DNA of 64,000 nt from Treponemataceae bacterium. Lineage in GTDB: Bacteria; Spirochaetota; Spirochaetia; Treponematales; Rectinemataceae. A program made the translations under genes and the position numbers. The stretch spans positions 32,001-96,000 of the forward strand of contig CAXXHO010000003.1 in assembly GCA_963667725.2 (NCBI GenBank). The letters are read 5' to 3'. Shown here one piece after another: positions 19,626 to 62,000 of this stretch. The notes beneath the pieces are model-generated. The model saw only the letters and a program-made list of their open reading frames with translations. It had not been told where the DNA came from and ran no database searches. The first letter of the stretch is position 1. Each line of letters starts with the position of its first letter.

Positions 19626-19810
19626 TTCAATAAAATCGCTTATCGCTTCCTGCCGGCATTATGTCGGCAAGACACTGCACCTGCCATATAAACGGCTAAG
19701 TGGGTGAAAAAGAACGTTGGGGAATGAAGCATTCGTGTGTATTTGATACGGATCTATGGATCGCTTGATGCGATACCTGGGAAAATTGCATTTCGAAAAG
19801 GAGAGCTGTT

Positions 19811-21460
19811 ATGAAACGCAGATTTCATTCAGGCATACGAGTTAAATTAATTTTTTGTTGTTTCCTTTTTGCTGGTATCTGTGCAGTAAATAGCGCATTT
19901 GCGCAAAAAACCTGGGGTTGCAGCCCTGAGATGAGCGATATAATGCTGATCAACGGAAAGATCTGGACGATGGATTCCCAGAATTCAATTGTATCGACTC
20001 TCTGGATCAAAGACGGGAAGATAGCCGGCACAAGCGCGAGCCCGCAGAAACCGGGCATCGCCACCAAGGTTATCGATTTGATGGGGCACACCGCAATTCC
20101 TGGGCTGATAGATGATCATATGCACTTTGTCCGGACGGGCCTCCTTCCTGGGCACGACACGAGAAAACTCGAGACTGCCTTCTCGATAGCCGACGTCCAG
20201 CGTATAATCAAGGCAGAAGCCGTCAGCCTGCCCAAGGGGACCTTTATAACGGCTATCGGCGGCATCCATCCCACCCAGTTCGCCGAAAAACGTCTGCCTA
20301 ACCTGAAGGAGTTGGATGAGGCTGCCTTCGACAACCCCGTCTACCTATCCCTATCCAATACCGGCCCCGGACAGGTGAACAGCAAGGCCAAGGAGTACTT
20401 CGCCAGCCAGGGGATCAACGTCGCGGAGAACGGAGTGATCAGCGCGGCCGAAACGGTCAGCATCTGGTACAAGCTCCTCGCTCAACATACCGCTGCGGAC
20501 ACGAAGCTCCAGCTCGAAAACAACATGGATTTCGCAGCCAGTAAAGGGCTCACCACGATCATGGACCTCGGCGGCGCTATCCCCGACGGCGGCTGGCTAG
20601 ACCCAGCCTCAGGCTACGATCCTCTCCTCGATCTGATGAGGGAGGATAAGATGCCCATACGGCTCCGCCTTAGCCTCAGGAACCTCGACACAACCGCGGA
20701 CCTCTCCGAGCTGAAGGGTACTCTCGACCATGTATGGAAGGAGTTCGGAAACGATCAGCTGAAGGTAATCGGTGCAGGTGAATGGCTTGTGGGGATAACA
20801 CTGCACTCGCAGATACCCCTTCCTTCATTTTATGAGGACGCGGTCCGGATGGTGGCGCAGCGCGGATGGGTCTACGACCAGCACATGATCAACAAAGCTC
20901 AGGCGGACGCTCATCTGGATATCTGGGAGAAGGTAAACAAGGATATCCCCATTGCCGATCTGCACTGGAAAATCGCCCATGGTAACGGCATGGATCCAGA
21001 GCTTATCGCGAGGGCAAAGGCGTTGGGCGTCGGCGTCGGCGCGCACAGCTGGACATATCTCGGCGGGAAGCCGACGGGAACGGGCAATCCTCCCTTCCGC
21101 ACGTTGATCGATAGCGGTATCCAGGTTGGAGGCGGTTCGGATGGGGCACGAATTGGTGTTATGAACCCATGGCTCAACATCTACTACATGGTAACCGGCA
21201 AGAATTGCGGTGGCGACCTTATCAACCCCGGCCAAACCATCTCCAGAGAGGAAGCCATCCGTCTGTGGACGGCGAACCAGGGTTGGTTCACAAAGGAAGA
21301 GGACAAGCTGGGTTCGCTCGAGGTAGGCAAGTTCGCCGACATCGCTGTTCTGAGTGAGGATTTCTTTGATCAGAACAAGGTGTCGGACCAGGATATCAGA
21401 AACCTCAAGTCCGTTCTCACGATTGTCGGAGGCAAGATCATCCACAACGAGAGCTTCTAA
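19811..21460 (+). CDS. Secreted metal-dependent amidohydrolase, copy 2 (tandem paralogue)
   Basis: Same length (549 aa) and motifs as copy 1. Confidence 0.88.
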   Translation: MKRRFHSGIRVKLIFCCFLFAGICAVNSAFAQKTWGCSPEMSDIMLINGKIWTMDSQNSIVSTLWIKDGKIAGTSASPQKPGIATKVIDLMGHTAIPGLIDDHMHFVRTGLLPGHDTRKLETAFSIADVQRIIKAEAVSLPKGTFITAIGGIHPTQFAEKRLPNLKELDEAAFDNPVYLSLSNTGPGQVNSKAKEYFASQGINVAENGVISAAETVSIWYKLLAQHTAADTKLQLENNMDFAASKGLTTIMDLGGAIPDGGWLDPASGYDPLLDLMREDKMPIRLRLSLRNLDTTADLSELKGTLDHVWKEFGNDQLKVIGAGEWLVGITLHSQIPLPSFYEDAVRMVAQRGWVYDQHMINKAQADAHLDIWEKVNKDIPIADLHWKIAHGNGMDPELIARAKALGVGVGAHSWTYLGGKPTGTGNPPFRTLIDSGIQVGGGSDGARIGVMNPWLNIYYMVTGKNCGGDLINPGQTISREEAIRLWTANQGWFTKEEDKLGSLEVGKFADIAVLSEDFFDQNKVSDQDIRNLKSVLTIVGGKIIHNESF

Positions 21461-36904: not shown

Positions 36905-37882
36905 TTACTGCGCGGTCACCGTAAAGGAGATGGAATCCGAATACTGGCCGGCTGTGTAATCTTGGATGTTCCCTACAGTGATCGACGCCGCGTACTCACG
37001 TGTGCCTGTTCCAGTGGGGCGTTCCATCGATGCGACCGTGTAGGGAGCGCTACTCACCGTGATCGGCGATCCGCCGATAGTAAAAGTGTAGGGGATTGTC
37101 TCGGTGACATTGGCGTTAACATGTTTGAGTTCGCCGCCATGTCCGGTCGGGGAACTCACGCTCAGCGAGTAGCGGAAATTGGATTTTACGCTCACCCTGA
37201 AGCTGCTGGTCGTCGTCGACGCCACATCGTTGAAGACTACCGATGAGATTGTCGTGCTTCCGGATGTGCCTGAAAGGAAGCCAATCGTCGCCGAGGGGGC
37301 CACGACGAATTTGATATAGACCGTCTGCGTATCAACGGGCTGCGTACTAGGATTTCTGTAAGATCTGAAGCGCTCGTTTCGGACTCGGAAGGTGATCGGA
37401 AGTTGATAAGTCCCCGCCGACAGCGAGGAATTGTTCCAGAAGACCGCGTAATACTGGAATGATGTGGTGGAACCGACAGTCGCGGATCCATTTGGAAATG
37501 CGTAGGTATACACATTGCTGCTACCGACGCCGATGTCCGATCCCCACATTTTTATGACATTCCCGCTGGTGGATTGGCTAAAGAAGACTTCAGAGTTGTC
37601 TATATACGTCGAGCTGTCACTACTCGTCCCTATATAAATCCAATCGGAGTTGCGAGGGTAGGGAGAGTCGGCTTTCGGGGAGAGGTCCACGGTGATATTC
37701 GTTACCGTGGAATAGTTTTTAGTCACGGTGATAGTACCCGTGACCCAGGTTGGGGTTCCCGCGTTGTCGTAGATGACGATGGCTGGGCTCTCTGCCGAAA
37801 GCAGAACGGTCTGCGCCCCCGCTGTCCAGGTCGCTGTCGCGATCATCATCGCGATTAGCAAATACTTTTTATATATGGTCAT
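36905..37882 (-). CDS. Two-domain pilus tip/adhesin candidate (CsuE/spore-coat-U-like)
   Basis: Signal peptide; two beta-rich domains ending AGTYQLPITFRV and AGQYSDSISFTV; last gene after the usher. Confidence 0.65.
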   Translation of the reverse strand: MTIYKKYLLIAMMIATATWTAGAQTVLLSAESPAIVIYDNAGTPTWVTGTITVTKNYSTVTNITVDLSPKADSPYPRNSDWIYIGTSSDSSTYIDNSEVFFSQSTSGNVIKMWGSDIGVGSSNVYTYAFPNGSATVGSTTSFQYYAVFWNNSSLSAGTYQLPITFRVRNERFRSYRNPSTQPVDTQTVYIKFVVAPSATIGFLSGTSGSTTISSVVFNDVASTTTSSFRVSVKSNFRYSLSVSSPTGHGGELKHVNANVTETIPYTFTIGGSPITVSSAPYTVASMERPTGTGTREYAASITVGNIQDYTAGQYSDSISFTVTAQ

Positions 37883-37956
37883 AACAGCTCCTTGCCCGCA
37901 TTTCATACTTAAAATAAGCCCATTCCCCCAAATAGACAATATGCTTGCCCATCGGT

Positions 37957-40431
37957 TCACCCTCCCGAACCGATGGTCGCGACGACGTCGCCCAATTCAA
38001 GTGTTCCATCGGGCGCATCCGTGAGCGTGAGAACCGTCGTACCAATGGCGTCCGGCCAGAGTATCTTGTACTCGCCTGGAGAAAGTCCGTAGATTTGGAA
38101 ATAGCCGGTATCGTCGGTGAAGGTCTGATCCGAGAACGATCCATCCGATTTCTCGACATCACCCGCCGTGTAGGTAATCGGGTCGCCTGCTTCGTTGACC
38201 AGCCTGCCTGTCACATAGAATCGTTTCTCGAGTCCCGCCTTGAAGAGGAAGCCAGTTCGATACCCCGAGGAAAGGGCGATTTGCGGTATCGTCGCCGATA
38301 CGTCGGCATCGGCTTCCGGGAAGTCCATGGAGGCACGCGCTTGATGATAGGAACTGAGCGGGGATGCCACTGGCGTTCCATAGCTCATGAACTTTGTTCC
38401 CGAATCGACGGCGAAGGCTACCGCCATGCCTTTTGTGGACTTGTCCGGATTGAAGATGATGAAGGAATCATAGATAGGTTTCGAAATCGCGAAAGACCCG
38501 TCAGCGAACGCGAGCGCCGTTGCCAAGCCCAGGTTAACGGTGCCCATCGGAGACGCGAGCTTGGAGCCGTAGCTTATGCCGCTGCCTCCCGAAACTGAGA
38601 AATAGGGCGTACTGAAACCGGAACTGATAGAGATCGAGGATGGGTCGTCCACGCCTCCCGCCAGATTGGTTCCCTGTATCCCAAATCCTATACCCCCGAG
38701 CGGTGGATAGACATCGCTATAGGTAACCGTATTGCCCCCTTCCGCCGACTGAGTCAGCCCGATCTGTCTTCCGGATTTCTGCGGATCCGAGGCGGTGAGG
38801 GAGAACGACGCTGTCAACGCGGGGCTTTTGCCTGTGGCAAATTCCATACCTGAACTGATGCTGAATGACGCGTTCTTGGCGGTGGAGAACCCAAGATTGA
38901 GAGAAGCGACTCCTCTGTCGGCTACGGTGCCCGTCAGCGTACGATTCCATTGGCCCGAGAGCCCAAAGGAGATATTCTTTGAAATTGATCCGCCGATGCT
39001 GCCCGACACGTTCACGTAGGCTTCGGGCAGGACGACCGTGGAGAGAGGTTGCGGCGCGGTGAATCCCTCCGAAGCGTAGGCGAAGGAGAGCCCGAAGGCT
39101 GGGGTGCTGGTCTTCCCTGGTTTGGAAAAATGATATTCCATATTCGCGGCGAAGGCTATCGGCTTCGATCGTCCATCCCAGGCGTAGAGGGAATTGGCGC
39201 CCAGTATGAACCCGCCAATATCGGTGCCTACCACAGCGCCCAGCCCTGCAAGCAGCGAGCGGCGGTCCGCTTGGAGGTTGGTAGAGAGGGTGAGTGCCGA
39301 GGCAAGGCCGTATCGGAAATAGACTGAAGCGATAGGTTGGTCAATTTCGGAACGTCCCACGCCCGCGGAAAGGCCGTAATCCCATTTACCGCCGACGAGG
39401 AGGCCGGTTTCCGCTGTGATGTATTTGGTTACTGGCTTATAAATCGCGACCCCGTCGTTAGTCTCTCCGTCCTGCACCTCGAGTTCGAACTGATTGAGGC
39501 CATACGCGAAAGGAAGATCGTATATCCTGTAATTGCCCCTATCCAGTTTCAGAACTCTTATGACCGACCCGTTTATCCTGAATCTCACCGTCGAGGGTTT
39601 CTGCAGCGTGAAAGCCACAGAAGGCGAATAATTTCTGTCATAGCGGCTGAAGGTTTCAACATTATGCAGTGATACGCCGTAGATTTCCGGTCTCGATTGC
39701 TGGGCGGTACCTTCGCCCGATATCATTCCGGCATAAAGCCGGCCTTCGATTTTGGGGAAGTCGTAAACTGCGCGGGCGCTGTTCAGCGACCATGAATACG
39801 ATGGGGCCGAATAGGACATCGATCCGCTCGATTCGAGCGCCAGTGACCAGAGGTTGAGAAGACCATCGGCGGTTATTGATACCGGCAATGTGGATCCGGT
39901 ATTTTTTATCGTGGCTGTACCGCTCGCGTTGAAATTGATGACGCCGGCGATAGATGCCGGTTTCAGCCAATTCTTATCTTCAAGGACAGTGTTGGGCGAA
40001 AAATCTAATTCCCTCAGAGAGGAATACTCTCCTGGCGTTACAATGGAGTAGCTGAGCGTTTCCATCTCCCAGACGCCCTTAAGTCCAGCTGCTTCAAGAT
40101 CGGCAATTCCAGCCCATTCCAGCTTCGAGAGAATGATGTTGAATATTCTATCTTGCTGGGTGACTGACAGAGCCTGTGAAAGAGCTTCGTGGAGTACCGA
40201 GACCCTTATGAAAGGATCCTCCATATCTATTTTCGCCTCAACATCGCCGTAGCGTTTTCCGTTGACGTTGAGCGCGACGATAGCTTCGCCCTCCGGAATG
40301 GGATTTAGGTTTTGTTCGAGGGGCAAAATCGCGGAAGACTCTTGCTGCGTGGCTGCGTCCGCTTCGAAAGACCCCGCTATGAGGAGTATCGCGGCGAACA
40401 AAAACGGTAAAAAGCTATTCGATCTCCGCAT
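37957..40431 (-). CDS. Fimbrial usher (outer-membrane assembly platform)
   Basis: About 820 aa; signal peptide; PSTVRFRING..L..GNY.I.DLP..YGLN plug motif; YFRYGL; amphipathic beta strands; FTDDTGYFQIYGL C-domain; coupled to the chaperone gene. Confidence 0.8.
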   Translation of the reverse strand: MRRSNSFLPFLFAAILLIAGSFEADAATQQESSAILPLEQNLNPIPEGEAIVALNVNGKRYGDVEAKIDMEDPFIRVSVLHEALSQALSVTQQDRIFNIILSKLEWAGIADLEAAGLKGVWEMETLSYSIVTPGEYSSLRELDFSPNTVLEDKNWLKPASIAGVINFNASGTATIKNTGSTLPVSITADGLLNLWSLALESSGSMSYSAPSYSWSLNSARAVYDFPKIEGRLYAGMISGEGTAQQSRPEIYGVSLHNVETFSRYDRNYSPSVAFTLQKPSTVRFRINGSVIRVLKLDRGNYRIYDLPFAYGLNQFELEVQDGETNDGVAIYKPVTKYITAETGLLVGGKWDYGLSAGVGRSEIDQPIASVYFRYGLASALTLSTNLQADRRSLLAGLGAVVGTDIGGFILGANSLYAWDGRSKPIAFAANMEYHFSKPGKTSTPAFGLSFAYASEGFTAPQPLSTVVLPEAYVNVSGSIGGSISKNISFGLSGQWNRTLTGTVADRGVASLNLGFSTAKNASFSISSGMEFATGKSPALTASFSLTASDPQKSGRQIGLTQSAEGGNTVTYSDVYPPLGGIGFGIQGTNLAGGVDDPSSISISSGFSTPYFSVSGGSGISYGSKLASPMGTVNLGLATALAFADGSFAISKPIYDSFIIFNPDKSTKGMAVAFAVDSGTKFMSYGTPVASPLSSYHQARASMDFPEADADVSATIPQIALSSGYRTGFLFKAGLEKRFYVTGRLVNEAGDPITYTAGDVEKSDGSFSDQTFTDDTGYFQIYGLSPGEYKILWPDAIGTTVLTLTDAPDGTLELGDVVATIGSGG

Positions 40432-41167
40432 CGAAGGCACCCTCGTAGGTTGCTCCTATCACCGCAGCCTCCCAGGGCACGAAAAAAGTTCTCTCCGACA
40501 AGGCCAAAATGTTCTGCCCGTCGATGCCGGCGGCAGCCTCGCCAGAAAACTCCCTCGGGGTCGATCCCGAGCTTTCATTGATACGGATCATAGGATTCGA
40601 GAGAAGGGCATGTTTTGTCCCTTCGTTTTTAACGGTCACCTGAAGTCCGGCTTTTCCGTCCTTCTGGGCGCCGACAGCTTGCGAAAAAATGAGTTTGGGC
40701 GACGCGTTCTTCGGCGTCACGTACAGCGCGGCCACGTAAGTCAGCAGAATGCTCACTCCCGAAGTCGCCGACTTGGTGAAATCGACCGGCAGCTGCTCGG
40801 CGATGACCCTGAAGGCGCTTTCGCTGGCGATGGCGGGACTGCCTCGGTACTGCACCTTGACGTTCTGGGAGCTATTGGCTTTCAGCACCACGCGGGAAGG
40901 GAACACCAAAAAGAGTTTGTCGGCGGGTTCGTTCTTCTCGACGCCGGAAGCGTCGATCGTTCTCGTGGTCACCTTTATGGATACAGCCGTTTGCTGGTCC
41001 GATTCGTTCGTCACTTTATAGGTCATTACGGCGTTCGCGCCCGACGGAGCTATCGACACCGTCATCGGCGAAAAGGAAAACGCGGCTGCCGTGGCAGCCG
41101 CGCTCACCAGAAACACAGCCACAATGATGAATGAACGAAGCTGTTTTGCCGTGTTTACGTTTTTCAT
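40415..41167 (-). CDS. Periplasmic pilus chaperone (PapD/CsuC-like), copy 1
   Basis: FSFSPM, VFPSRVVL..Q.VKV, ESAFRVIAEQLP, ALYV.P, NEGTKH. Confidence 0.85.
   Translation of the reverse strand: MKNVNTAKQLRSFIIVAVFLVSAAATAAAFSFSPMTVSIAPSGANAVMTYKVTNESDQQTAVSIKVTTRTIDASGVEKNEPADKLFLVFPSRVVLKANSSQNVKVQYRGSPAIASESAFRVIAEQLPVDFTKSATSGVSILLTYVAALYVTPKNASPKLIFSQAVGAQKDGKAGLQVTVKNEGTKHALLSNPMIRINESSGSTPREFSGEAAAGIDGQNILALSERTFFVPWEAAVIGATYEGAFDAEIE
40416..41096 (+). repeat. 681-bp direct repeat, copy 1 (mature chaperone coding region)
   Basis: Reads identical to 42512-43192 (offset 2096). Confidence 0.9.
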
Positions 41168-41186
41168 TGCGATCCTCGTAGAAAAA

Positions 41187-41726
41187 TCAGTTTGCAGCGA
41201 CAGTCACGTGGAGAACGTCCTGGTAGTTAGCGGCATCCCAATCGGCACCGGCAGCGATACCAACAACATTCACGCCGTAGACAAATGCCTGGCCGCTCAC
41301 GCCGCCAGTTGTCTTCGCAGTGAACGTCGCGGTGAGCGCAGATCCAGCGCTTATCGGAACTGTTTGCGCGACGATTTTCTCGGCAGCAACCGTTGCAGCG
41401 CTGTTGAACGTGAAGGTGTAGGGGATCGTCGTCACATTCGCGCCGGTAACGTAAGTAGTTCCGTTCCACTGCGTAAGAACGCCCTTTTCCGCATACACTT
41501 TAAACGTCCACGAAGAATGGTTGCTTCGGATCATCGCCGTATCCGAGTCTGACCCGCCGGTCACCACATCGAGAGTACCCAGCGCGAGATTAGGAGCGGA
41601 AAGAATATACACGTGCTTGCCAACATTGGCAGCAACAGTGATATCCTGGCTCTGCGTCGCCGTCTGAGCGCTCACGAAACCGAACCCTGCAAGAACCAAA
41701 AGACCTACGATTACCAACTTTTTCAT
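41187..41726 (-). CDS. Pilin subunit P1 (179 aa, spore-coat-U/Csu-like)
   Basis: Signal peptide; RSNHSSW; IPYTFTF; AANYQDVLHVTV. Confidence 0.7.
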   Translation of the reverse strand: MKKLVIVGLLVLAGFGFVSAQTATQSQDITVAANVGKHVYILSAPNLALGTLDVVTGGSDSDTAMIRSNHSSWTFKVYAEKGVLTQWNGTTYVTGANVTTIPYTFTFNSAATVAAEKIVAQTVPISAGSALTATFTAKTTGGVSGQAFVYGVNVVGIAAGADWDAANYQDVLHVTVAAN

Positions 41727-41819
41727 ATGAGACTCCCTTGCTGCCGCGGCTTTGCCGCGACGTACTTTTTTATCAGGGCAGTTCCTTTTAAAGGGAACAG
41801 ACCCTAATTTATTACTTAC

Positions 41820-41848
41820 ATAATACTTATCGGGCTGATGATTGTCAA
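41820..41848 (-). promoter_or_regulatory. Sigma70 promoter TTGACA-N17-TATTAT for P1-chaperone-usher-adhesin
   Basis: Near-consensus hexamers with 17-bp spacer. Confidence 0.7.
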
Positions 41849-41898
41849 TACTGAGAAATTATGAAAAAAGTGACGCTTTTAAAATAGGAACAGGCTTT

Positions 41899-42438
41899 TT
41901 AATTGACGCTAAGAGAAACGTGGAGGACATCGCGATAGTCGCCGGCGCCCCAATCGGAACCTTCGGCTATTCCTGTCACTTCGACGGAATAGTCGAATGG
42001 CTCCCCGTTGGCGCCATATTTTGTTTTCTCGCCGAAGGTGGCGACAAGTTCAGTTCCAAGCGCAGTTGGGACGGTTTGGGCAATTATTCTCTCCGCAGGA
42101 TTGGCCGCCGTGCTATTGAACGTGAAGGTATAGGGAATCAAATCCCCGCCGGATACATAGCTCGAAGTGAGCGCATCCCATTCCGCGAGCGCCCCCTTTT
42201 CGGCATAGACCCTGAATCGCCAGGAAGAATGATTGCTTCTGATAACGATGGTTCCGGTGGCCGTATTCAAGCCTGTGGTGCTGAGCGGACCGAAAGAAAG
42301 ATCCTGAAGCGATAGAATGTAAATATGCTTTGAGACATTGGAAGTAACCGTTATATCGGTATCCTCGGAGGCTGTCTGAGCGCTGAGATATCCAACACAA
42401 GCCAGACACAGAAAAAACCACACCATCAACTTTTTCAT
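41899..42438 (-). CDS. Pilin subunit P2 (179 aa), close paralogue of P1
   Basis: KHIYILS, RSNHSSW, YAEKG, IPYTFTFNS, AGDYRDVLHV; start MKKLMV with SD AAGGGG. Confidence 0.7.
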   Translation of the reverse strand: MKKLMVWFFLCLACVGYLSAQTASEDTDITVTSNVSKHIYILSLQDLSFGPLSTTGLNTATGTIVIRSNHSSWRFRVYAEKGALAEWDALTSSYVSGGDLIPYTFTFNSTAANPAERIIAQTVPTALGTELVATFGEKTKYGANGEPFDYSVEVTGIAEGSDWGAGDYRDVLHVSLSVN

Positions 42439-42510
42439 ATAGAGCCCCTTTTCGCGGCGGCATCGCGACCACATGCTACATATGTTTTGTTTTCGTCAAC
42501 CATGACGGCA

Positions 42511-43257
42511 TTATTCGATCTCCGCATCGAAGGCACCCTCGTAGGTTGCTCCTATCACCGCAGCCTCCCAGGGCACGAAAAAAGTTCTCTCCGACAAGGC
42601 CAAAATGTTCTGCCCGTCGATGCCGGCGGCAGCCTCGCCAGAAAACTCCCTCGGGGTCGATCCCGAGCTTTCATTGATACGGATCATAGGATTCGAGAGA
42701 AGGGCATGTTTTGTCCCTTCGTTTTTAACGGTCACCTGAAGTCCGGCTTTTCCGTCCTTCTGGGCGCCGACAGCTTGCGAAAAAATGAGTTTGGGCGACG
42801 CGTTCTTCGGCGTCACGTACAGCGCGGCCACGTAAGTCAGCAGAATGCTCACTCCCGAAGTCGCCGACTTGGTGAAATCGACCGGCAGCTGCTCGGCGAT
42901 GACCCTGAAGGCGCTTTCGCTGGCGATGGCGGGACTGCCTCGGTACTGCACCTTGACGTTCTGGGAGCTATTGGCTTTCAGCACCACGCGGGAAGGGAAC
43001 ACCAAAAAGAGTTTGTCGGCGGGTTCGTTCTTCTCGACGCCGGAAGCGTCGATCGTTCTCGTGGTCACCTTTATGGATACAGCCGTTTGCTGGTCCGATT
43101 CGTTCGTCACTTTATAGGTCATTACGGCGTTCGCGCCCGACGGAGCTATCGACACCGTCATCGGCGAAAAGGAAAACGCGGCTGCCGTGGCAATAGAAAC
43201 GATAAGATAGAAAGCAACCGCCATGAGTGAACGTTTGCCCAAAGGGAATCTTCTCAT
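42511..43257 (-). CDS. Pilus chaperone, copy 2
   Basis: Mature sequence identical to copy 1; different signal peptide and stop codon. Confidence 0.85.
   Translation of the reverse strand: MRRFPLGKRSLMAVAFYLIVSIATAAAFSFSPMTVSIAPSGANAVMTYKVTNESDQQTAVSIKVTTRTIDASGVEKNEPADKLFLVFPSRVVLKANSSQNVKVQYRGSPAIASESAFRVIAEQLPVDFTKSATSGVSILLTYVAALYVTPKNASPKLIFSQAVGAQKDGKAGLQVTVKNEGTKHALLSNPMIRINESSGSTPREFSGEAAAGIDGQNILALSERTFFVPWEAAVIGATYEGAFDAEIE
42512..43192 (+). repeat. 681-bp direct repeat, copy 2
   Basis: Reads identical to 40416-41096. Confidence 0.9.
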
Positions 43258-43361
43258 AATAAATCCTTTTAAATCTCTACCTAATGCCTAATCGATTTTA
43301 CCCATGATGTCAATTATCTGGCGCTAGTTATTTATCGGATCAATGAATGTAAAAAATTATG

Positions 43362-43390
43362 AAAAAAGCGGCCACGATAAGCGGCCGCTT
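43362..43390 (-). terminator. Rho-independent terminator after pilin P3
   Basis: Minus strand AAGCGGCCGC-TTATC-GTGGCCGC-TTTTTT. Confidence 0.7.
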
Positions 43391-43414
43391 CGAAGAAGGC
43401 TAAAGGGGGTTCAA

Positions 43415-43987
43415 TTAATTAGTCGTAATCTTGACGTTTACAGTGTCGGTGTACACGCCGGCGTCCCAGAATTCTTCAGCATCTTGGGCGGTGATGGCTA
43501 TTTTCATGTCGACCGCTTCGCCAGCTATTAATGTTTTGCCAGTCTTTTCATAATATCCATCGCCGGAAGTAGGATAATTGTCATCAGGAAGGGTGACATA
43601 TCCCTCATTCCAGTCATGGGCTCCGGAGACTTTTACAAAGGCGAAGGTGTAGGGGATATCGACAGTCATCGTTGCGCCCACAGGATCATCACTTGTATCA
43701 CGAACTAACTTGCTTCCATTATCAGAATAGACTTGAACAATCCACTTCTTGTAGTTCGTCGTAATGGTAGCGGTGGCAACTTTATGAGCAGATACACCAG
43801 CTGATAAAAGGGTAAACTCGTTTCCGTCAGTGCCAGTAACGGGATCAATCGCTAATGCAACGTATTTGTTTACATGAGCGGTAAGATCAAGAGTATCGCT
43901 TGCTGTGGTGACCGGTGCCGCAGGCTGGGCAAAAGAAAAACCAACGGCGATTAAGGTAAAAAGAAACACAATACCAAACTTTTTCAT
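43415..43987 (-). CDS. Pilin subunit P3 (190 aa)
   Basis: Start MKKFGIV with SD AGAGG; TTNYKKW..VYSDNG; IPYTF; AGVYTDTVNVKI. Confidence 0.7.
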   Translation of the reverse strand: MKKFGIVFLFTLIAVGFSFAQPAAPVTTASDTLDLTAHVNKYVALAIDPVTGTDGNEFTLLSAGVSAHKVATATITTNYKKWIVQVYSDNGSKLVRDTSDDPVGATMTVDIPYTFAFVKVSGAHDWNEGYVTLPDDNYPTSGDGYYEKTGKTLIAGEAVDMKIAITAQDAEEFWDAGVYTDTVNVKITTN

Positions 43988-44077
43988 ATAACACCTCTTT
44001 TGCGGGTTAATCCGCAAACTTACTTTTTTCGGATAGGTTATCCAAAAATGGGTAGCCAATCCTTTTTCTTTGCAGTT

Positions 44078-44106
44078 ACTATAATTCCTACACATAAAAC
44101 TGTCAA
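44078..44106 (-). promoter_or_regulatory. Sigma70 promoter TTGACA-N17-TATAGT for P3
   Basis: Near-consensus hexamers with 17-bp spacer. Confidence 0.7.
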
Positions 44107-44152
44107 TACTCAAGCACAAAAAAATTGTTAAAAACAAATAATTCGAAAAAAT

Positions 44153-44656
44153 CTACGAAATCGTCACCGTGATCGTCACGATATCGCTGTAGGTGTCGGC
44201 GACGACTGGTTGGTCAAGATCTTCAAGTCGAGTGTAGCTTATGCTTACCGGGTATTCCACGGTCGCTTTCGCCACGAGCGTGGAGTAGGTCATCTCAAAG
44301 TCGGATGACAGGTCGATTCGGTCAACTGTCCCGAATCCCATTGTATACGGATAAAGATCGTTGTTTCCCGGGGTTTTTCCCGACAGTTTGCCGGCATTTT
44401 TGGAGTTGATGCTTATCGTCCAGATACCCTTCGTATTCGTGTAGACAATCACTTTGCCGAGATAAGCCGTGTTGGCGTTGACCAAATCCACAGTTTCTAT
44501 GTCGGTCATATCGGTGCTTAGCGTGAATACGGTCGGGACGATGCCCTGTATTTCCGTGGTCAAAACTTTAGTGGTCTGGGAATATGTCCCAAACGCGGCA
44601 GCGAGGAAAAGGAAAAACGCCAATACTTTTTTTATTGTCATAGTTGTTATACTCAT
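44153..44656 (-). CDS. Pilin subunit P4 (about 167 aa)
   Basis: YTNTKGIW...SKNAG; YPYT; ADTYSDIVTITV. Confidence 0.65.
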   Translation of the reverse strand: MSITTMTIKKVLAFFLFLAAAFGTYSQTTKVLTTEIQGIVPTVFTLSTDMTDIETVDLVNANTAYLGKVIVYTNTKGIWTISINSKNAGKLSGKTPGNNDLYPYTMGFGTVDRIDLSSDFEMTYSTLVAKATVEYPVSISYTRLEDLDQPVVADTYSDIVTITVTIS

Positions 44657-44740
44657 TGATAGAAACTTCGAATCGATTCATCCAGAGGGGCGATAATCAA
44701 CTGGTGAGTGTCGCCCCTCTCTTTGTCACCCTGAGACTTC

Positions 44741-45199
44741 TCAGAGGGTGGCAACTGTGATGGTAATCGTGTCCTTGTAGGTATCCGCCGCGAGGCCCAG
44801 CGAAGAAGCCGTGGCATAATAAGCGGTCAAGGGATAATTGAGCACGCCGGTGCCAGTGATCGTGGCTGTCCTATCGGCGGAGAGCGACAGGTTGTTAATG
44901 GAGGCGATGGACACTGTGTAGTCGTAGTGATTTGAGAGCGACTCGCCTTTCATATACCCGCCATTAAGAGAGTGAACGGTGATTGTCCAGCTGCCTGTGG
45001 TGTTCGAGGTTATCGTGACTGAACCTAGGCTTGCCTGGGTCGCGGTAACATCGATCGTCGTGGTGGCGGGCAGGTCGCCGGTTACTCCCACGCTCGCTCC
45101 AACGACGGCGATGATCTGGGTGCTTGAAGTGTTGCCTGCAGAAAATACGGGTGTTGACGCAAGAAGGGCAACAATGGCAAACAGTACAAACTTTTTCAT
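44741..45199 (-). CDS. Pilin subunit P5 (152 aa)
   Basis: TSNTTGSW..VHSLNGG; YDYT; ADTYKDTITITV; SD AGAGG. Confidence 0.7.
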   Translation of the reverse strand: MKKFVLFAIVALLASTPVFSAGNTSSTQIIAVVGASVGVTGDLPATTTIDVTATQASLGSVTITSNTTGSWTITVHSLNGGYMKGESLSNHYDYTVSIASINNLSLSADRTATITGTGVLNYPLTAYYATASSLGLAADTYKDTITITVATL

Positions 45200-45245: not shown

Positions 45246-45275
45246 ATAATATGAACGGATGGAGCGATATGTCAA
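45246..45275 (-). promoter_or_regulatory. Sigma70 promoter TTGACA-N18-TATTAT for P5-P4
   Basis: Hexamer matches upstream of P5. Confidence 0.6.
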
Positions 45276-45424
45276 TAGTTCGGATAGTACTTCTTTATGC
45301 TTTTTTCTGAATACTTTGAGCGGCAAGAATGATATATCGAGGAGAAAAACTTCTTGACATGATCGGGGCTGGCAGGATATATCTTCACCGTGTCCTGCCC
45401 GTAAATGGGTAGCTTTAGGGATTT

Positions 45425-45498
45425 GGGCGGTTAGCTCAGTTGGTTAGAGCACCAGTATGACACGCTGGGGGTCGCAAGTTCGACTCTTGCACCGCCCA
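45425..45498 (+). tRNA. tRNA-Val(GAC)
   Basis: Cloverleaf with GGGCGGT/ACCGCCC acceptor stem, anticodon loop ATGACAC, TTCGA T-loop; no encoded CCA. Confidence 0.93.
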
Positions 45499-45506
45499 TA
45501 ATCGTC

Positions 45507-45550: not shown

Positions 45551-48500
45551 CTACTTTTTGATCAGCACGAATTCCACACGTCGGTTCTTCCACCTGTTCT
45601 CCGCATCTTGGAATTCCACTACGGGTCTGCTCGAGCCAAGGCCGACGACGCTGAGGAGCTTGGCGTCAACGCCGTTCCGCACCAGCATGTCTCGTACCAG
45701 CTCGGCCCTGCCGGCGGACAAGGGAATCAGCTCCCTGCTTTCTTCGATGTTGATTTTCGCCTGCGACAAACCCATAATCTTGGCCGCGCTGTTCGCGTGG
45801 CCTTCAATCCTGATTCTATAGTCCGGGTATTTGTTCAATATCTGGGCAATTCTCGCTACTACTTCCTCGTTCCGCGCGACAATCTCGGGCGATAGGTTGA
45901 GGAAATCCGCGAAGTTAGCCCTGAACACGATCGAGGGAACCTTGATCATGAACCGGCTTCCATCGCGTATCACGAGGACGTCGACCGCGATGACGCCTGA
46001 GATGGTCGTACTATTCCCCAACGCATCATGGGCCACGAATTTGAAAGGATAGTCTGTCGCCGACTCGACAAGAGCGCCGCTGGCCGACTTTCCATCCCAG
46101 GCGATCGTGGCTGGAGGATTTCCCTTGCCGCTCCATTCCGTGAATCGTCGCTCGGTTGCCGCAGTCCTGGGGCTACTCGATTCAACGGTGGCGGTCTCGA
46201 ACACCTTCAGGTTCCAATCGACGATTCCCGCCTCCGCGTCCGCGCCGATGTGGAAGTTCAACGTGTCATCTACCCCATCCCCATCGGGGCTGAAGCGTTG
46301 TACATCGACGCCGACGGTCATAGCGGGCGGAGAGGCGTCGACGAGAACCGACGCGCTGGACGCCTGAGCAAAGTCGCCCTTCGCGTAGAAGACGCTAAGT
46401 TTACCTATAAACTTGCCCCGAACCACCTGACCTTGGAGATCGCGACCGTCCCATACAATTTGCTCGGGCAATTCTGAACCCGTGCCGTCGAAGAAGCGCT
46501 TCTCCGTGCCCTCTTCATCGACAAGGGAGAATCTCCAGGACTCGATTCCTTCCCGCCGCTCGATGCCGATGGAAAAGGACAGCTTGTCGTGTATTCCGTC
46601 GCCGTTGGGTGATATGCCAGTATTGGAGGCGGTCACCTTTACTTTTGGTATTGTTCCGTCCACCGTGATGGCGGGAATATTGGCCGATGAGGTGTTGCCC
46701 GCAATATCAGCAGCTTTCACTTCATAGCTATAGACGCCATCTTCGACGATCGATCCAGCCGAGTCCCTTCCATCCCAGGTGAAGTTTTTGGCTTCGGATT
46801 TCCATGACCAGGACCGAACGATCGCACTCGAGGCATTCCTTATGAGTCCGGTCCAGTCGTCGCCTATGGAGGAATTCTGAGCGATGACTACCGTATCTTT
46901 GTTGCCGTCGCCGTTGGGAGAGAAAAGAATAGGCGAAGCCTCGACCGAGATCCTCGGGGCTTTCGTGTCGAGCATGATCGCTGGGCTGAGGGACGAGAAT
47001 ACTTCGTCGTCGCTGAACCGAACATTCAGCGCGACTTGGTAATCGCCATCCGGGGCGCGGGCGCCATAATCTGTGCTGCCATCCCAAGCATAACTATCGC
47101 TGGTGCTCATCGAGCCCTTCCATGACTTAATAGGGGCGGAGTCGCGATTCCCTGACGCGTCGAGGCCGTAAATGACAACCTCGTATTGCCTAATCACCGG
47201 GATCGCCGGCACATGCGTACGAATATTCATTATATCCCGCATGCCGTCGCCGTTCGGGCTGAACGCCTTCTGGTCTAGGTTGATAAGAATTGCCTTTTTA
47301 GCGATGGCTTTTTCGACAGAAAGCCGCTCGGCCGCCAGACGATTCGCCTCTCTCAATCGGTCCTGGGTATCGGTCAATTGACGTTCGGCCTCGGCTTTTT
47401 CGGCATTCAAGCGCGATATTTCCGCTTCCTTCGAAGCGAGGTTTGCCGCCAATTCCGCGGCTTGCCTGTTCGCTTCCCTGGCGATGGCGGAGGCCCTGTC
47501 CGCTTCAGCCTTTTTTGCCGCGAGCCTCGCTTCGCCGAGAATCCTGAGCGCCGCTTCGGCAACCGAAGATTTGCGTTCGTCCGCAGCCGCTTTCGCTCGC
47601 TCCAGAGCGAGGCCCTCCGAGAATTTCGCCCAGGCAGCGATTCTGTGGGCTTCCGTAAACGCGGAAGCTGAGGCTTTATAATCCGTCGCGGCGTCGGCGA
47701 AATCGCCGTATTCGCGCTTCTGGTCGCCGTCGGCCATCAAGAAAGAGGCGAGCAAGTATTCTTTTTGGGCATTGAATTCCGCCGATGCGGCGTCAGCGGC
47801 CTGTTTTGCGGTCGTGGCTTGTGTTCTCGTCTCCGAAGCGTACTGTTCCGCACCCCAGGCAAGTATATGGCTGCAGTCGCGCGCCGCAATCTTGAGTTTT
47901 TCCGTTCCCGCCCTGATCGAATCATTGGAACCCGAATCATAGAGATCGCGATCCTCGGCTCTAAGCCTTTCGGCCTCCGCCGCGTGGAAGGGAGAATAAT
48001 GGCCGAAACCGCTTTTCGCGACCTGAGTGTAAAGTGCCTCCACATCGGCTTTCATCGCTGCCGATTCGTAGAGCAGGGAAGCTCGCTTATAGGACGCGAT
48101 GGACGCTCTGTATTCCTTATTGGCATGGAAATCCTGGGCGTAGATCCATTCAGCTTCAGCGTTTTCGAAACGATCGGCCGCTTCGGAGGCCGAGTCGCGA
48201 GACCGAGCATATTCTGCCGCAGCGGAGGCTTTTTCCATTTCGGCCTCTGATCTCAGGGGCAAGCCTTCTTCGAGCAGCGCCTGCAGATCCGCTTCGGCGC
48301 CGCTCAGCATGATAGCGACGTGATAGGCGGAGATCCCGTTGAAGGGAATCTGACGGATCTCAACTTCGTAATATGCTTTTGCGTCCTGAAACCCCTCAAG
48401 GGTTGTCGCCGTTTTCACGGGCAGGATGGTATCTATTCCGTAAGACTTAATTTCTTGAGCGCAGAGGTTGACTATCCCGAACAGATTCCGGAATGCGGGT

Positions 48501-48715
48501 TCTGTTATCGCGGGCTTCGGGATGATGGTAGTGGTTGTCGTAGCCGGCGCTGCTTGAACGATGACGAGAGGCGGCAAGGGTATAATGGTCGACGTCGTGG
48601 TTATCGCGGGACCGGCTTCCGTCGTGATCAAAGCCACATCGGGTTGTACCGCGCAGGAGGCAAGGAAAAGGAGTAACAAAAACAAGGACAAAAAAACAAC
48701 TTTTTTTCTTTCCAC
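45551..48715 (-). CDS. Large lipoprotein: Ala-rich helical/coiled-coil region, four FlgD-like Ig repeats and C-terminal OmpA-like peptidoglycan-binding domain
   Basis: Lipobox LASC; four (F/I)SP(N/D)GDG repeats with WDG motifs; IEGHA; NRRVEF. Confidence 0.85.
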   Translation of the reverse strand: MERKKVVFLSLFLLLLFLASCAVQPDVALITTEAGPAITTTSTIIPLPPLVIVQAAPATTTTTIIPKPAITEPAFRNLFGIVNLCAQEIKSYGIDTILPVKTATTLEGFQDAKAYYEVEIRQIPFNGISAYHVAIMLSGAEADLQALLEEGLPLRSEAEMEKASAAAEYARSRDSASEAADRFENAEAEWIYAQDFHANKEYRASIASYKRASLLYESAAMKADVEALYTQVAKSGFGHYSPFHAAEAERLRAEDRDLYDSGSNDSIRAGTEKLKIAARDCSHILAWGAEQYASETRTQATTAKQAADAASAEFNAQKEYLLASFLMADGDQKREYGDFADAATDYKASASAFTEAHRIAAWAKFSEGLALERAKAAADERKSSVAEAALRILGEARLAAKKAEADRASAIAREANRQAAELAANLASKEAEISRLNAEKAEAERQLTDTQDRLREANRLAAERLSVEKAIAKKAILINLDQKAFSPNGDGMRDIMNIRTHVPAIPVIRQYEVVIYGLDASGNRDSAPIKSWKGSMSTSDSYAWDGSTDYGARAPDGDYQVALNVRFSDDEVFSSLSPAIMLDTKAPRISVEASPILFSPNGDGNKDTVVIAQNSSIGDDWTGLIRNASSAIVRSWSWKSEAKNFTWDGRDSAGSIVEDGVYSYEVKAADIAGNTSSANIPAITVDGTIPKVKVTASNTGISPNGDGIHDKLSFSIGIERREGIESWRFSLVDEEGTEKRFFDGTGSELPEQIVWDGRDLQGQVVRGKFIGKLSVFYAKGDFAQASSASVLVDASPPAMTVGVDVQRFSPDGDGVDDTLNFHIGADAEAGIVDWNLKVFETATVESSSPRTAATERRFTEWSGKGNPPATIAWDGKSASGALVESATDYPFKFVAHDALGNSTTISGVIAVDVLVIRDGSRFMIKVPSIVFRANFADFLNLSPEIVARNEEVVARIAQILNKYPDYRIRIEGHANSAAKIMGLSQAKINIEESRELIPLSAGRAELVRDMLVRNGVDAKLLSVVGLGSSRPVVEFQDAENRWKNRRVEFVLIKK

Positions 48716-57291: not shown

Positions 57292-57365
57292 CGGGCAATA
57301 GCGCAGGTGGTTAGCGTACGAGTCTGGGGGACTCGGGGTCGCCAGTTCGAGTCTGGCTTGCCCGA
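57292..57365 (+). tRNA. tRNA-Pro(GGG)
   Basis: CGGGCAA/TTGCCCG acceptor stem; CGAGT-CTGGGGG-ACTCG anticodon arm. Confidence 0.92.
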
Positions 57366-57533: not shown

Positions 57534-59033
57534 TTGAAGGCAGTTGGCTATGCGTGGCTCATTCAAACGTACCGCCTCGATGTGCTCGAGTCTTCATCAG
57601 TCTCCTATATCCATGAGCGAAGCGATCGCCGCAGTGTGGAACAAGATAGCCGGACCGAGTTGTATTACCCCAGGGGCTATGATCCTGGCGATGGATGGGC
57701 CGGGAACCTAACGTTCGCGTTAAAGTATGAAGGGCTCAATCTTGAGGTAGTGGCAGCGTTGTTCTCAAAGCTCGATTCCTCGGCGGTCGAAGCCTATGTT
57801 CAGGAATCACCGATCGGCAAATATGCTCGGTTTGTATGGTTTTTTTATGAACTTCTAACGAAGCGAAAGCTTGGGATTCCTGATCTCGATACAGGCAACT
57901 ATCTACCCATCCTCGATGAAGAGCGGGAATTTGCCATCCCGGAGGCGGTTGCGCCCAGGGCGAAGCGGCAAAGACTTATTGTAAACCTCCTCGGAGGAAA
58001 AGAGTATTGCCCGCGCATCAGGAAGACCGAAGCGATCGCAGCCTTCCATACCGCCGATGTCGCGGCATCAGTACGAGCCCTTGTAGCCGCCTATCCCGAT
58101 GAACTCATCGGGCGCGCTTCCCGATACCTCTACGCGAAGGAAACGAAATCTTCGTTCGAGATCGAGCGAGAGCGAGCCGACACAAAACGCACCACCAGGT
58201 TCATTGAACTCTTGAAACGAGCGGGGCGTGTCGATCCGTATGGGGAAGAGGAGCTTACGGCGCTGCAGAACGCGATCGTGGAAGAACGATATGCCGTCGA
58301 TGGGTATAGGACGAACCAAAATTATGTAGGCGAGAGCATCGGCCCGACCCGCGAACTCGTCCATTATATTCCGCCCAAGCCGGAAGACTTAGGATTCCTT
58401 ATGGAGGGATGGACTTCCTCCTGCAGGCAGATTCGGTCCAGCGCTCTCGATGCCCTCGTTCTTGCCACCGTAATGGGATTCGGGTTCGTGTATCTCCACC
58501 CCTTCGAGGATGGCAATGGCCGCATCCATCGATTCCTGATCCACGACGCGCTGGTCGCGACGGGATTCACGCCGGAGGGCATGATATTCCCGGTATCCGC
58601 GGTTATGCTCCGCCGGATGAAGGAGTACGATGCTGCTTTGGAAGCGTTCTCCAGGCCTTGCATGGAGCGGCTTCAGTATGCCCTCGATAGCCGGGGAGCG
58701 GTAACGGTGCAGGGAGAGACCAGCGGGCACTACCGCTATCCAGACCTGACGCGGCAGGCGGAAGCTTTAGCTTCATTCGTGCAGGAAACGGCGCAGGTGG
58801 AGTTTTCAGCGGAACTGGAATATCTCTCGCTTTTCGACCAGACAGCCGAAGCCGTTCGCTCGCTCCTTGACATGCCCGATCGAAAGCTCGAGCTCTTCGT
58901 CCGCCTCTGCATCCAGGGCAAAGGGAAGGTGTCGGCATCGAAACGCGGGCTGTTCCCTGAGATCACCGATGGGGAACTTGCCGAACTCGAAAGCGCCGTA
59001 GCCCCAATCATCGCTGGCCAAAAGCAAAATTGA
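57534..59033 (+). CDS. Fic-domain protein (long form)
   Basis: Canonical HPFEDGNGRIHR; SSFEIE inhibitory-like motif; SD GGAGG before TTG. Confidence 0.9.
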   Translation: MKAVGYAWLIQTYRLDVLESSSVSYIHERSDRRSVEQDSRTELYYPRGYDPGDGWAGNLTFALKYEGLNLEVVAALFSKLDSSAVEAYVQESPIGKYARFVWFFYELLTKRKLGIPDLDTGNYLPILDEEREFAIPEAVAPRAKRQRLIVNLLGGKEYCPRIRKTEAIAAFHTADVAASVRALVAAYPDELIGRASRYLYAKETKSSFEIERERADTKRTTRFIELLKRAGRVDPYGEEELTALQNAIVEERYAVDGYRTNQNYVGESIGPTRELVHYIPPKPEDLGFLMEGWTSSCRQIRSSALDALVLATVMGFGFVYLHPFEDGNGRIHRFLIHDALVATGFTPEGMIFPVSAVMLRRMKEYDAALEAFSRPCMERLQYALDSRGAVTVQGETSGHYRYPDLTRQAEALASFVQETAQVEFSAELEYLSLFDQTAEAVRSLLDMPDRKLELFVRLCIQGKGKVSASKRGLFPEITDGELAELESAVAPIIAGQKQN

Positions 59034-59077
59034 GCGTTATGCGGCAATGCCGCACAGGAAGCGATGTTCAACCTTAT

Positions 59078-62000
59078 TCAGATTTCAAATCCACCCTTGA
59101 TGATGAACCGCTTTAAAAGGTCATGGATCTTGATGTTGATCTTGATCGGGGCAATGGTCGATCCTTCCAGGCCTTCAAAATAAGCCTTGGCTTTTACTTT
59201 ATCGATCGTATCCTTGAGTTCGTCGAAGCGACCGAATTCATTGATGTTCGCTTCGGTAATACCCGAATTCATCATGGCGCGTAGCTTTGCCTCATCCAAG
59301 CCCAAGATCCCGGAAAGCGTGCTGATCTGGTCGTTTTTCGCCGTACATTGATATTCGGTCACGTAATCACGAAAGGTCTTCCCGCTTTCCATGACCGCGC
59401 AACCGCTTTGTACATCGTGGAGAAAGATATTGGCGTATTTTTGTTCTTCGATGGTCAGATACGCGAAGGACTTATGCAAATCGTCCAGGGTTTGCAGCCT
59501 CTGTTCTTCCTCGATGCCGTCCTGATTCAAGGCTTTCAGATATTTATCAAACCGCGAGTTCATGTAGTCGGCATCGATTCTCCCGGTATCGATCTCGGTC
59601 AAGTATCCGTCGATATCATAGGGAACGTCGGGGATGCCGCTTCCGCCGCTCCCCCCACCGCCGCCGGCGAGTTCTTTGTAGCGGAGCGCCAGAACGAGGT
59701 AGTCACTCTCATCGAATCGCATATCGATGATTTTTTTTGGTTTACCAGGGCCATCGCTGAATTCGTAGCTCGACTTGCTCCAAGTAAAGCCCTGGATTTT
59801 CGCCGCCTCGAGATGGAGGCTCAATTCCTTGAATAGCTTGGCGAATTGTCCTCGCTCCGCGCCGTCGTCCGGCAATTTTGAAATATCCGGAACACCGGCT
59901 CGGACGAACAAGTCCACGATGTCCTGGTAGAGAGAGTTCATTGCGCGCAAATTTGAATCAAGCCGATCCACGAACAACCCAAGCGGCATGTCCCCCGAAT
60001 AGAGCTTTACCGCTCTGTTGATGTTCGCTTCCATGGTATGCGGCTTGCGGTAATAGCGGATCGTTCCGAAGGGTTTGTCGGGGCCGAAGAGACGATTGGT
60101 GCGGGAGAAGGCCTGGATGATATTCTCGTACTGGAGCAGCTTGTCCAGATACAAGGTGTTGATCCACATGGAATCGAAACCGGTGAGCATCTGATCCACC
60201 ACGATCAAAAGATCTATCTGTTTCTCCGGGCTTCGCTCCAGGCGGATATATGGTTCTTTATGGGCAAGACGGGCAGCTATGTCTTTCTTGAATTGCGCAT
60301 GGGTAGGTATGGAAAAATCCTGGCCATACCGCGCGTTATAGTCCTCAATGATTTCGACAAGACCGTCTTCTTTGAATTTTACCCCGCCGTTATTGTCGAT
60401 AGTGGGATCAAAGAGAGTCGTAAATTTCAGGTTGGTTTTCTTGCTTTTGATGAGGCGGTAATATTCGATCGCCTCAGCTATGCTCGTGGTGGCGAAGAGC
60501 GCGTGGAATTTTCCGTTCTGGCTCAGGGTGAGCCAGTTATCCAGGATATCCTCGACAACCTTTTCCCGGTGCTCGGTCCGCTCGTATTGTGCCTGTGTCA
60601 GGTAATCCTCGATGCCTTTGACCACGCTGCCGTCGCCCGCGATGGAACCGGCCATGGGCATGTCTTTCATGAATCGGTTAAAGACGGCTTTCTTTTTGGG
60701 ATCGGCAAAGGCTTCAGCCTCATCGCTGGCTTTCGCCTGTTCCAGGGCTATCGCGACGCGCAGATCCTTGTCCTTGTAGGTGAGGACCTTATATGGATCA
60801 AAGCCCAGGACGTTCTTATCCCGAATACCATCGGCGATGCTGTAGCGGTGGAGCTCGTCGCCGAATAGGGAGGACGTGGTATTGAGCTTTTTCTGGTTCT
60901 CTTCATGGATGGGGGTGCCGGTAAAGCCAAAGAGAAGGGCGTGGGGAAAGGTAGCCTTGATCGTGATCAGCATATCCCCAAAGGTTGAACGATGTGCCTC
61001 GTCGACGATGATGACGATACGCTTCGCCTGCATCATGGCGAGGTCATGGGCGTTGATGCCTCCCTCTTCGTCCTTGATGTTGCTCATCTTCTGGATCGAG
61101 GTGACAATCAAAGTGTCGGCCGGGCGCGTGCTTTTCAGCTTGGTGATCAGGACGGCCGTATTCTCGGTGGCCTGAACCTCCTCGCTCTCTTCGGCGAAAC
61201 CACGGTACTCGTTCAGGGACTGGGTGCCGAGCTCGATCCGGTCCATGAGGAAAATGACCTTGTCGGCGTCCTTGGAATTGGCGATGAGTTGGGCCGACTT
61301 GAAGCTGGTCATGGTTTTGCCTGAGCCGGTGGTATGCCAGACATAGCCGCCCCGCCCCTTGTGAGCGCTCCAGTCAATCTTGGAGACCCGGTCGGAGATG
61401 GCGTTGGCCGCGTAATACTGGTAGCTCCGCATCACCTTGAGGATGCCGTCTGAGCCGTCGGCCACGGTGTAAAAGCCGATGAGCTGATGGGCCATGGGTA
61501 TGGAGAGGAGTGAGGAGGCGATATCCTTCCAATCATTGACCGGCTCGTTGTTAAAATCGGCCCAGCGGAAATAGTAATCAGTGTTGAATCTGCCTTCTGG
61601 ACCGGGGTTCGCGAAGTAGCGGGTTTCTTCAGGCTGCATGGCGACAAAGATCTGGACGAGGGAAAAGAGGCTCGTGAAAATGCCCTCGTCCGAATACTTT
61701 TCGATCTGATGGAAGGCCTGGCTCACGGGCACGCCGCTTTTTTTAAGCTCGATGTGGATGACGGGCATGCCGTTTATAAGGAGCATGAGGTCGCCCCGAC
61801 GCTCGTTTAAAATCTTCGATCTGCTTTTAAACTGAGGCTGGCGGGCGATCTGATAGCGGCTTTGCCCGGCGGCGATCTCCCGACGATCGTAGATTTTTAG
61901 GCTTACTTCCTTGCCGAAATGGAGCCGGTCTTCCGGGTTGTCGCGGGTGATCGAGACGGTTTTCCCGTTGATGAAGCCATTGAGTTTGAGGGGCGTGCGC

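Follow-up and report, generated by a model that had tools for sequence, protein, structure and literature searches.

Swimming by means of internal flagella is what defines the spirochaetes, and non-classical chaperone-usher (CU) pili are placed in the literature cited here only in Proteobacteria, Cyanobacteria and Deinococcus-Thermus. A block of nine minus-strand genes in a 64,000-nucleotide (nt) stretch of DNA from a Treponemataceae bacterium (GenBank assembly GCA_963667725.2, contig CAXXHO010000003.1, positions 32,001 to 96,000; hereafter the window, numbered from its first letter) raises the question of whether a spirochaete can carry a complete pilus system of this kind. The analysis presented below indicates that the block is very probably an intact non-classical CU operon of a flagellin-less Rectinemataceae spirochaete, likely to assemble a thin adhesive pilus.

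Components of the operon

The nine open reading frames (ORFs) reported at 36905..45199 in a preliminary description of the window are all present there. They comprise five pilin-like genes (152-190 amino acids, aa), two chaperone genes, an 824-aa usher gene and a 325-aa two-domain gene, transcribed in the order p5, p4, p3, chaperone, p2, p1, chaperone, usher, tip, with likely starts assigned for p3 (43987), p2 (42438), usher (40431) and tip (37882) (Table 1). The signal peptides proposed earlier for all nine products are borne out by a hydrophobic N-terminus and an AxA-type site in each, as judged by a simple heuristic and not by SignalP, and the mature products are entirely devoid of cysteine.

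The usher was assigned on the basis of its fold. The AF2 model of the 37957-40431 product (34 sequences; pLDDT 81.9) contains both the 24-strand barrel and the plug that the preliminary description had anticipated, arranged as an N-terminal domain, six strands (161-257), the plug (272-331), 18 strands (350-643) and two C-terminal domains (646-817). Its best Foldseek matches are all FimD or PapC (E 1e-33, to FimD, to 7e-10), and fold comparison by VIA gave Z 26.4 over 640 residues, the first non-usher appearing at Z 14.9. PF00577 is carried by 27 of the 39 matches in the homologue search, several of which are automatically named usher, so that these genes are already labelled in the databases; the wider family must be large, since the usher profile matched 3057 clusters at E <=0.001 in a library of 1.8 billion proteins. 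NCBIfam yielded no usher or pilin match, and neither did sequence searches of usher and chaperone against PDB yield any.

Both chaperones match PapD_N (PF00345) above the cut-off, and Pro61 and Arg91 are invariant in 21/21 spirochaete chaperones. Pro61 aligns with the invariant proline of CsuC, EcpB and FimC, and Arg91 with Arg89 of CsuC and EcpB, where FimC has Trp; Pro59 is invariant across CU chaperones, while Arg89 marks the archaic and the alternative ones (PMC4654587). V109, I111, L113 and Y115 are in register with the CsuC donor residues V110, F112, M114 and Y116. Tyr196 and Arg174, which complete the subunit anchor in CsuC (PMC4654587), correspond in the sequence alignment to Asn190 and Leu159, near an invariant His157. 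The chaperone profile also matches EcpB at E 0.05.

A 681-nt stretch running from the signal-peptide cleavage site to the stop codon has exactly the same sequence in both chaperone genes (42512-43192 = 40416-41096). An assembly error was considered and rejected on read depth and on contigs of other studies: in run X3 the repeat forms one unitig at a depth of 96.5 against 40-50 alongside, and contigs from two further studies span the distal chaperone without differences. In the related genome G449 the contigs stop 140 and 141 nt inside the chaperone copies, as is expected of an identical repeat in assembly; these contigs diverge by 4-10% from the window. In three other relatives (G450, G461, G409) the DNA of the two copies agrees at just 65-71%, so the presence of two chaperone genes predates their sequence identity, behind which gene conversion is likely to lie.

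The AF2 model of the tip (pLDDT 92.7) has two beta domains, whose best folds are CfaB/CfaE fusions (Z 11.3-11.9), CfaE (9.8) and CsuE (9.7; Foldseek E 1e-9). The alignment of the C-terminal domain with CsuA/B 15-155 and FimH 158-279 runs to the final residue of the domain, which stops at strand F; this is the incomplete immunoglobulin (Ig) fold foreseen for the subunits, as modelled for the tip. The five pilins share the profile of this domain and, as read from their sequences, would adopt the same fold; an alternating hydrophobic stretch at their N-termini is the candidate donor strand. Among the motifs earlier described as common to the subunits, (P/D)YT and A..Y.D do occur in all five pilins and the tip, but the strict SN..W pattern holds for three pilins only, p1 and p2 carrying another spacing (SNHSSW). 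An alignment of 44 pilin sequences shows no variation at Y83 and Y148 and very little at N49, W53 and D150. Searched against PDB, the pilin profile scores highest with the CsuE pilin domain (E 0.018) and the tip profile matches CupE1 alone (E 0.006), while SCPU (PF05229) is matched by 8/33 tip relatives (best E 2e-10) and 4/44 pilin relatives and SCPU clusters occur, as leads only, among the ESM Atlas neighbours of the subunits. The most conserved pilin among the relatives is p4, with 61-68% identity where the tip has 25-38%.

Further subunit-like genes were observed outside the operon. A lone gene for a 190-aa cysteine-free pilin-like protein (L146; G000:C3:251927-252499) lies distant from the operon, beside an elongation-factor-G-like gene, and its product could use the operon's usher. 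Several tip-like genes occur in the loci L057, L144 and L147: three in tandem in G409, three in G468 and two in G406.

Table 1. Predicted features of the CU locus and the adjoining DNA (positions in the window)
Feature	Position	Strand	Basis
Tip subunit, two-domain, likely adhesin, 325 aa	36905..37882	-	AF2 and fold matches; SCPU in relatives
Outer-membrane usher, 824 aa	37957..40431	-	AF2 and FimD/PapC fold matches; PF00577 in homologues
Periplasmic chaperone, usher-proximal copy	40415..41167	-	PapD_N E 3e-8; Pro61, Arg91
Pilin p1, 179 aa, candidate major subunit	41187..41726	-	Promoter-like site; RNA-labelled contigs; CsuE profile match
Sigma-70-like promoter site upstream of p1 (TTGACA-17-TATTAT)	41820..41848	-	11/12 consensus; predicted
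Pilin p2, 179 aa, p1 paralogue (~52% identity)	41899..42438	-	
Periplasmic chaperone, distal copy; mature part as in proximal copy, signal peptide differs	42511..43257	-	
Pilin p3, 190 aa, likely start 43987	43415..43987	-	
Sigma-70-like promoter site upstream of p3	44078..44106	-	11/12 matches; predicted
Pilin p4, 167 aa	44153..44656	-	
Pilin p5, 152 aa	44741..45199	-	
Sigma-70-like promoter site upstream of p5	45246..45275	-	11/12 matches; predicted
tRNA-Val adjoining the cassette	45424..45499	+	ARAGORN
Lipoprotein, 1054 aa, Ig-like repeats, OmpA-type C-terminus	45551..48715	-	Pfam FlgD_ig, CHU_C, OmpA

Relation to the known chaperone-usher classes

In a tree of 23 ushers (LG+G4), the canonical sigma ushers (100/99) are sister to a separate clade (100/100) containing the spirochaete, Leptolyngbya, Vibrio and three alphaproteobacterial loci. 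The trees included 4-5 canonical sigma reference ushers, with the classical ushers as outgroup; CfaC was not included, and EcpC, which in an earlier tree fell inside the clade but as a very long, unreliable branch, was dropped from the final one. The ushers of flagellin-less genomes form one clade (100/99), and a single grouping of all spirochaete ushers is left uncertain at 38/91.

The spirochaete locus resembles the archaic sigma systems (Acinetobacter Csu, csuA/B-A-B-C-D-E; Pseudomonas CupE) in its order of pilins, chaperone, usher and tip, an order that recurs in the relatives and in cyanobacterial and proteobacterial loci, as well as in its SCPU-like subunits with a C-terminal Y-x-D motif, a tip fold matching CsuE, the chaperone equivalents of Pro59 and Arg89 and the donor-strand register. 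The archaic (Csu/spore-coat-U) likeness suggested in the preliminary description is thus real but distant, as the window's own proteins give no SCPU match; the usher stands beside the canonical sigma group. Whereas CsuA/B and CupE1 have a conserved disulfide (PMC4654587, PMC10104325) and the sigma references carry two cysteines, the pilins of the operon lack cysteine; proteobacterial members of the usher clade retain two pilin cysteines, which makes the loss lineage-specific. The C-terminal strand is one residue longer: in 74/88 spirochaete matches (some loci counted twice, five lacking the motif) Y-x-D is followed by nine residues, the end being mostly non-aromatic, against eight residues and an aromatic end in 6/6 sigma references. 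The operon also has two chaperone genes. With its separate usher clade, cysteine-free subunits, longer C-terminal strand and, by alignment, different domain-2 anchor, the system does not appear to be a member of the Csu type.

Other systems share parts of this picture. The chaperone of a Leptolyngbya plasmid locus is the best plasmid match (34%), its usher belongs to the same clade and the first of its pilins shares both the lack of cysteine and the longer C-terminus, but the locus has two small subunits and no two-domain tip beside the usher. The Synechocystis CccS/CccP/Slr0019 locus is a related cyanobacterial CU locus, likened here by description and not by sequence (PMC4390875); cyanobacterial CU systems are counted in the literature as sigma in the broad sense. 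To the alternative (alpha) systems (CFA/I, ECP) the locus is linked by the top folds of the tip and by the Arg anchor, although the sequence profiles favour SCPU over CS1-type pilins. The classical systems (type 1 Fim, P Pap) share the usher architecture at 12-15% identity, but differ in the chaperone residue at the position of Arg91 and in the outgroup position of their ushers. Two further loci in the usher clade, L076 on a Vibrio alginolyticus plasmid and L095 in Photobacterium, have two adjacent divergent chaperones and pilins annotated as hypothetical; a LuxR-type gene adjoins L076.

Host range, chromosomal site and expression

The host, called an apparent spirochaete in the preliminary description, is indeed a spirochaete grouping with the Rectinemataceae and not a proteobacterium. 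Labels of the nearest named loci read Rectinemataceae bacterium (usher 84% identical, with the genes downstream also shared at 72-91%), Rectinema sp. and Spirochaetaceae bacterium, among six loci returned by the search, of which two short ones bear other labels; the same loci recur among genomes of the same genus and family. The host genome is estimated to be 97% complete with 6.3% contamination. It encodes BamA and gave no match for flagellin, DsbB or VKOR, for which the controls were positive in 4, 6 and 3 of 14 genomes, respectively; the FlaA search was uninformative, as no control matched.

Across the family, usher was found in 36 of the 69 genomes and flagellin in 29, the latter split cleanly by genus. 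Ushers occur in 31/40 flagellin-less and in at least 6/29 flagellated genomes; the family search had given 5/29 and missed the usher of G406, found later, so that all usher counts are lower bounds. The RpoB tree puts the host inside a single flagellin-less clade (96), alongside up to three further losses of flagellin, and the association therefore reflects a handful of independent events and not 69. In a phylum sample of 401 genomes the chaperone was found in seven, including all three of family f12, which gave no flagellin match; the other two spirochaetes checked, G317 and G210, carry chaperone and flagellin alike. The f12 ushers (L099, L100, L101) are 1095-1247 aa with long extensions; five exported genes follow the usher in G374, the last with a pilin-like Y..T motif, and no pilin gene lies beside the usher in G371 and G377. 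In nine further matches of the phylum usher search, seven of them from family f19, only a C-terminal carboxypeptidase-regulatory-like domain aligned. The four f19 loci opened (L071-L074) lack chaperone and pilin genes and were dropped; they encode exported proteins of 810-837 aa with 5-6 cysteines and that domain, beside an FHA-like gene; they are not ushers.

No account of CU pili in spirochaetes was found among titles and abstract openings, in keeping with the earlier statement that no characterised example was known; the accompanying statement that characterised CU pili come mainly from Proteobacteria has to be extended to Cyanobacteria and Deinococcota (PMC10104325, PMC4654587), the cyanobacterial system being described in PMC4390875 and 10.1101/130278. 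Spirochaetes go unmentioned in PMC5717340, and pili, fimbri and usher are absent as terms from the main text of a phylum-wide spirochaete genomics preprint (10.1101/2025.07.04.663154) and from the text of a Rectinema study (PMC6052044), although supplements to these papers could list such genes.

The locus lies between malQ/sugar-transporter genes and an epimerase gene in seven relatives (G449, G450, G461, G409, G433, G441 and G446; one flank only in some) and is ancestral at one chromosomal site across the main flagellin-less clade of the family, not a recent island. In G450 the RpoB is nearly identical and the flanks are 96-98% identical to those of the host, yet the usher is 60%, p3 45% and the tip 25% identical, and its usher groups with that of G461 from another genus; the cassette has thus been exchanged in place. 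Divergent tip and usher genes beside conserved flanks are expected of a surface structure under diversifying pressure. Other relatives have chaperone, usher and tip at the site and their pilins elsewhere. Upstream of p5, a lipoprotein gene (45551-48715) with a coiled region and a below-cut-off likeness to Leptospira Lsa66 stands between tRNA-Val and tRNA-Phe. The lipoprotein is 40% identical in G450 and 36-40% in those relatives whose cassettes have been swapped, while G433, G441 and G446 gave no match for it at the site; it varies together with the cassette and is a putative member of it.

The block had also been called AT-rich. Its guanine-cytosine (GC) content is indeed lower than that of the flanks, but only modestly so (0.521 against 0.588 and 0.564; at the 10th percentile among 1177 contig windows of equal size), the dip being located mostly at 43-45 kb (0.46-0.47) and the usher and chaperone genes having 0.55-0.56. 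Elsewhere in the window, lower-GC DNA at 57534-63228, following tRNA-Pro (57292-57365), carries genes for a Fic-domain protein, a RhuM-family protein and a type I restriction subunit R, likely a defence island, and two tandem 549-aa ORFs lie in a lower-GC stretch at 17976-21460.

Sigma-70-like sites with 11/12 consensus positions precede p5, p3 and p1, among 12 sites found overall against 7.9 expected by chance, and a hairpin follows p3. Most of p1 is covered by contigs in 5/5 RNA-labelled runs from three studies, four of these contigs terminating at 41770-41785, only just within the predicted start; coverage of p3 comes from two such runs, and several RNA-run contigs derive from related strains. 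These data give a faint hint that p1 is the major shaft subunit. A p1 depth of 7636 in run X6 was not used, as it comes from a single contig with an adapter end and may reflect amplification.

Assembly model, alternatives and significance

Sec export, donor-strand binding, tip-first assembly and p1 polymerisation are taken over from established CU biology in the following model. The nine products would cross the inner membrane by Sec, and BamA would insert the usher. The G1 strand of the chaperone (V109, I111, L113, Y115) would bind the unfolded subunit while Arg91 grips its C-terminus, with Asn190 and His157 likely to replace CsuC Tyr196 and Arg174, which would fit the one-residue-longer strand. 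The second chaperone gene would contribute dose and not specificity in the host genome, given that the mature chaperones are identical. The tip would enter the usher first and p1 would then polymerise, each N-terminal strand passing into the preceding subunit; p2-p5 would serve as adaptors, as terminators or as shaft subunits in place of p1. Assembly would proceed without disulfides, consistent with a genome giving no DsbB or VKOR matches, and the fibre may fix the cell, which does not swim, to surfaces, to particles or to partner cells. What sequence or model shows directly is the fold of the usher, the two-domain fold of the tip, the hallmarks of the chaperones, the lack of cysteine, the fixed site and the exchange of the cassette; the tip fold together with the variability of the tip points to a role in adhesion.

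Several observations weigh against a pilus operon, or narrow its support. The window's usher does not itself match PF00577, its pilins match no Pfam pilin family or SCPU, and solved pilins are matched by the profiles only weakly (E 0.006-0.02). The donor strand is a reading of the pilin sequences, the modelled proteins being tip and usher. The RNA evidence consists of assembled contigs, whose depth cannot rank genes, and two of the five RNA-labelled runs may be DNA; in the three on record as RNA, usher and chaperones are barely or not covered. At 97% completeness, missing DsbB or flagellin genes are not proven. The locus is known from genes and models, with no fibre, ligand or protein observed, and in Synechocystis, where related CU genes affect type IV pili, the CU fibre is still a hypothesis (PMC4390875).

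Different readings of the same genes were therefore compared. The same machine might export subunits for a short coat, an envelope mesh or free secreted adhesins in place of a long pilus. Myxococcus protein U has a spore-coat role, coat-type roles have been proposed for other proteins of SCPU, the nearest subunit family, and in some relatives the pilin genes are dispersed at a distance from the usher gene. In Synechocystis, moreover, the SCPU protein CccS undergoes chaperone-dependent export without a proven fibre (PMC4390875). Such a product is nevertheless improbable, because almost all loci inspected have a two-domain tip gene after the usher gene, as in Csu, and a p1 gene with its own strong promoter-like site and recovery from the RNA runs fits a many-copy shaft. 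It is also unlikely, if slightly less so, that there are two fibres, one per chaperone unit, or that p3 forms the shaft, with promoter switching. The promoter-like site, hairpin and RNA-labelled coverage of p3 would suit this, as would the dissimilar chaperones of G450, G461 and G409 and the separation of distal and proximal types in the tree for two relatives. Against it stand the single usher and single tip, the identical mature chaperones of the host and the presence of p1 in all five RNA-labelled runs.

The notion that the block was acquired recently as a foreign island, or arose from an assembly mix-up, and has no settled spirochaete role is largely refuted and has very little probability left. 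The lower GC, the flanking tRNA, the contamination estimate and the departure of the usher tree from the RpoB tree within the genus had spoken for it; they are outweighed by the shared malQ/epimerase site in seven relatives of several genera and by the occurrence of ushers in 36 of the 69 family genomes and their single flagellin-less clade, while the uniform depth across this region in the best DNA run, together with contigs from other studies, argues against a mix-up. An intact CU operon that likely builds a thin adhesive pilus thus remains the preferred explanation. A broader proposal, offered tentatively and with less than even confidence, is that the system represents a separate CU branch, sister to the archaic class, with its own anchor, disulfide-free and suited to anaerobes, which became the main surface appendage after loss of the periplasmic flagellum. 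It would combine one site, many pilins, a cassette swapped between species and twin chaperones kept identical by gene conversion, and would serve attachment to particles, biofilms or syntrophic partners.

The machine itself is familiar; the points of interest lie in the phylum of the host, in a branch free of disulfides, in the altered anchor, in the exchange of the cassette and in the connection with flagellum loss. The branch is a natural setting in which to test how CU assembly works when disulfides are missing and the chaperone anchor is altered. Rod-shaped relatives such as Rectinema cohabitans are in culture (PMC6052044), which opens the question to bench work, and a CU pilus common in the flagellin-less spirochaetes of sludge, aquifer and biofilm communities would provide a testable answer to how these cells attach.

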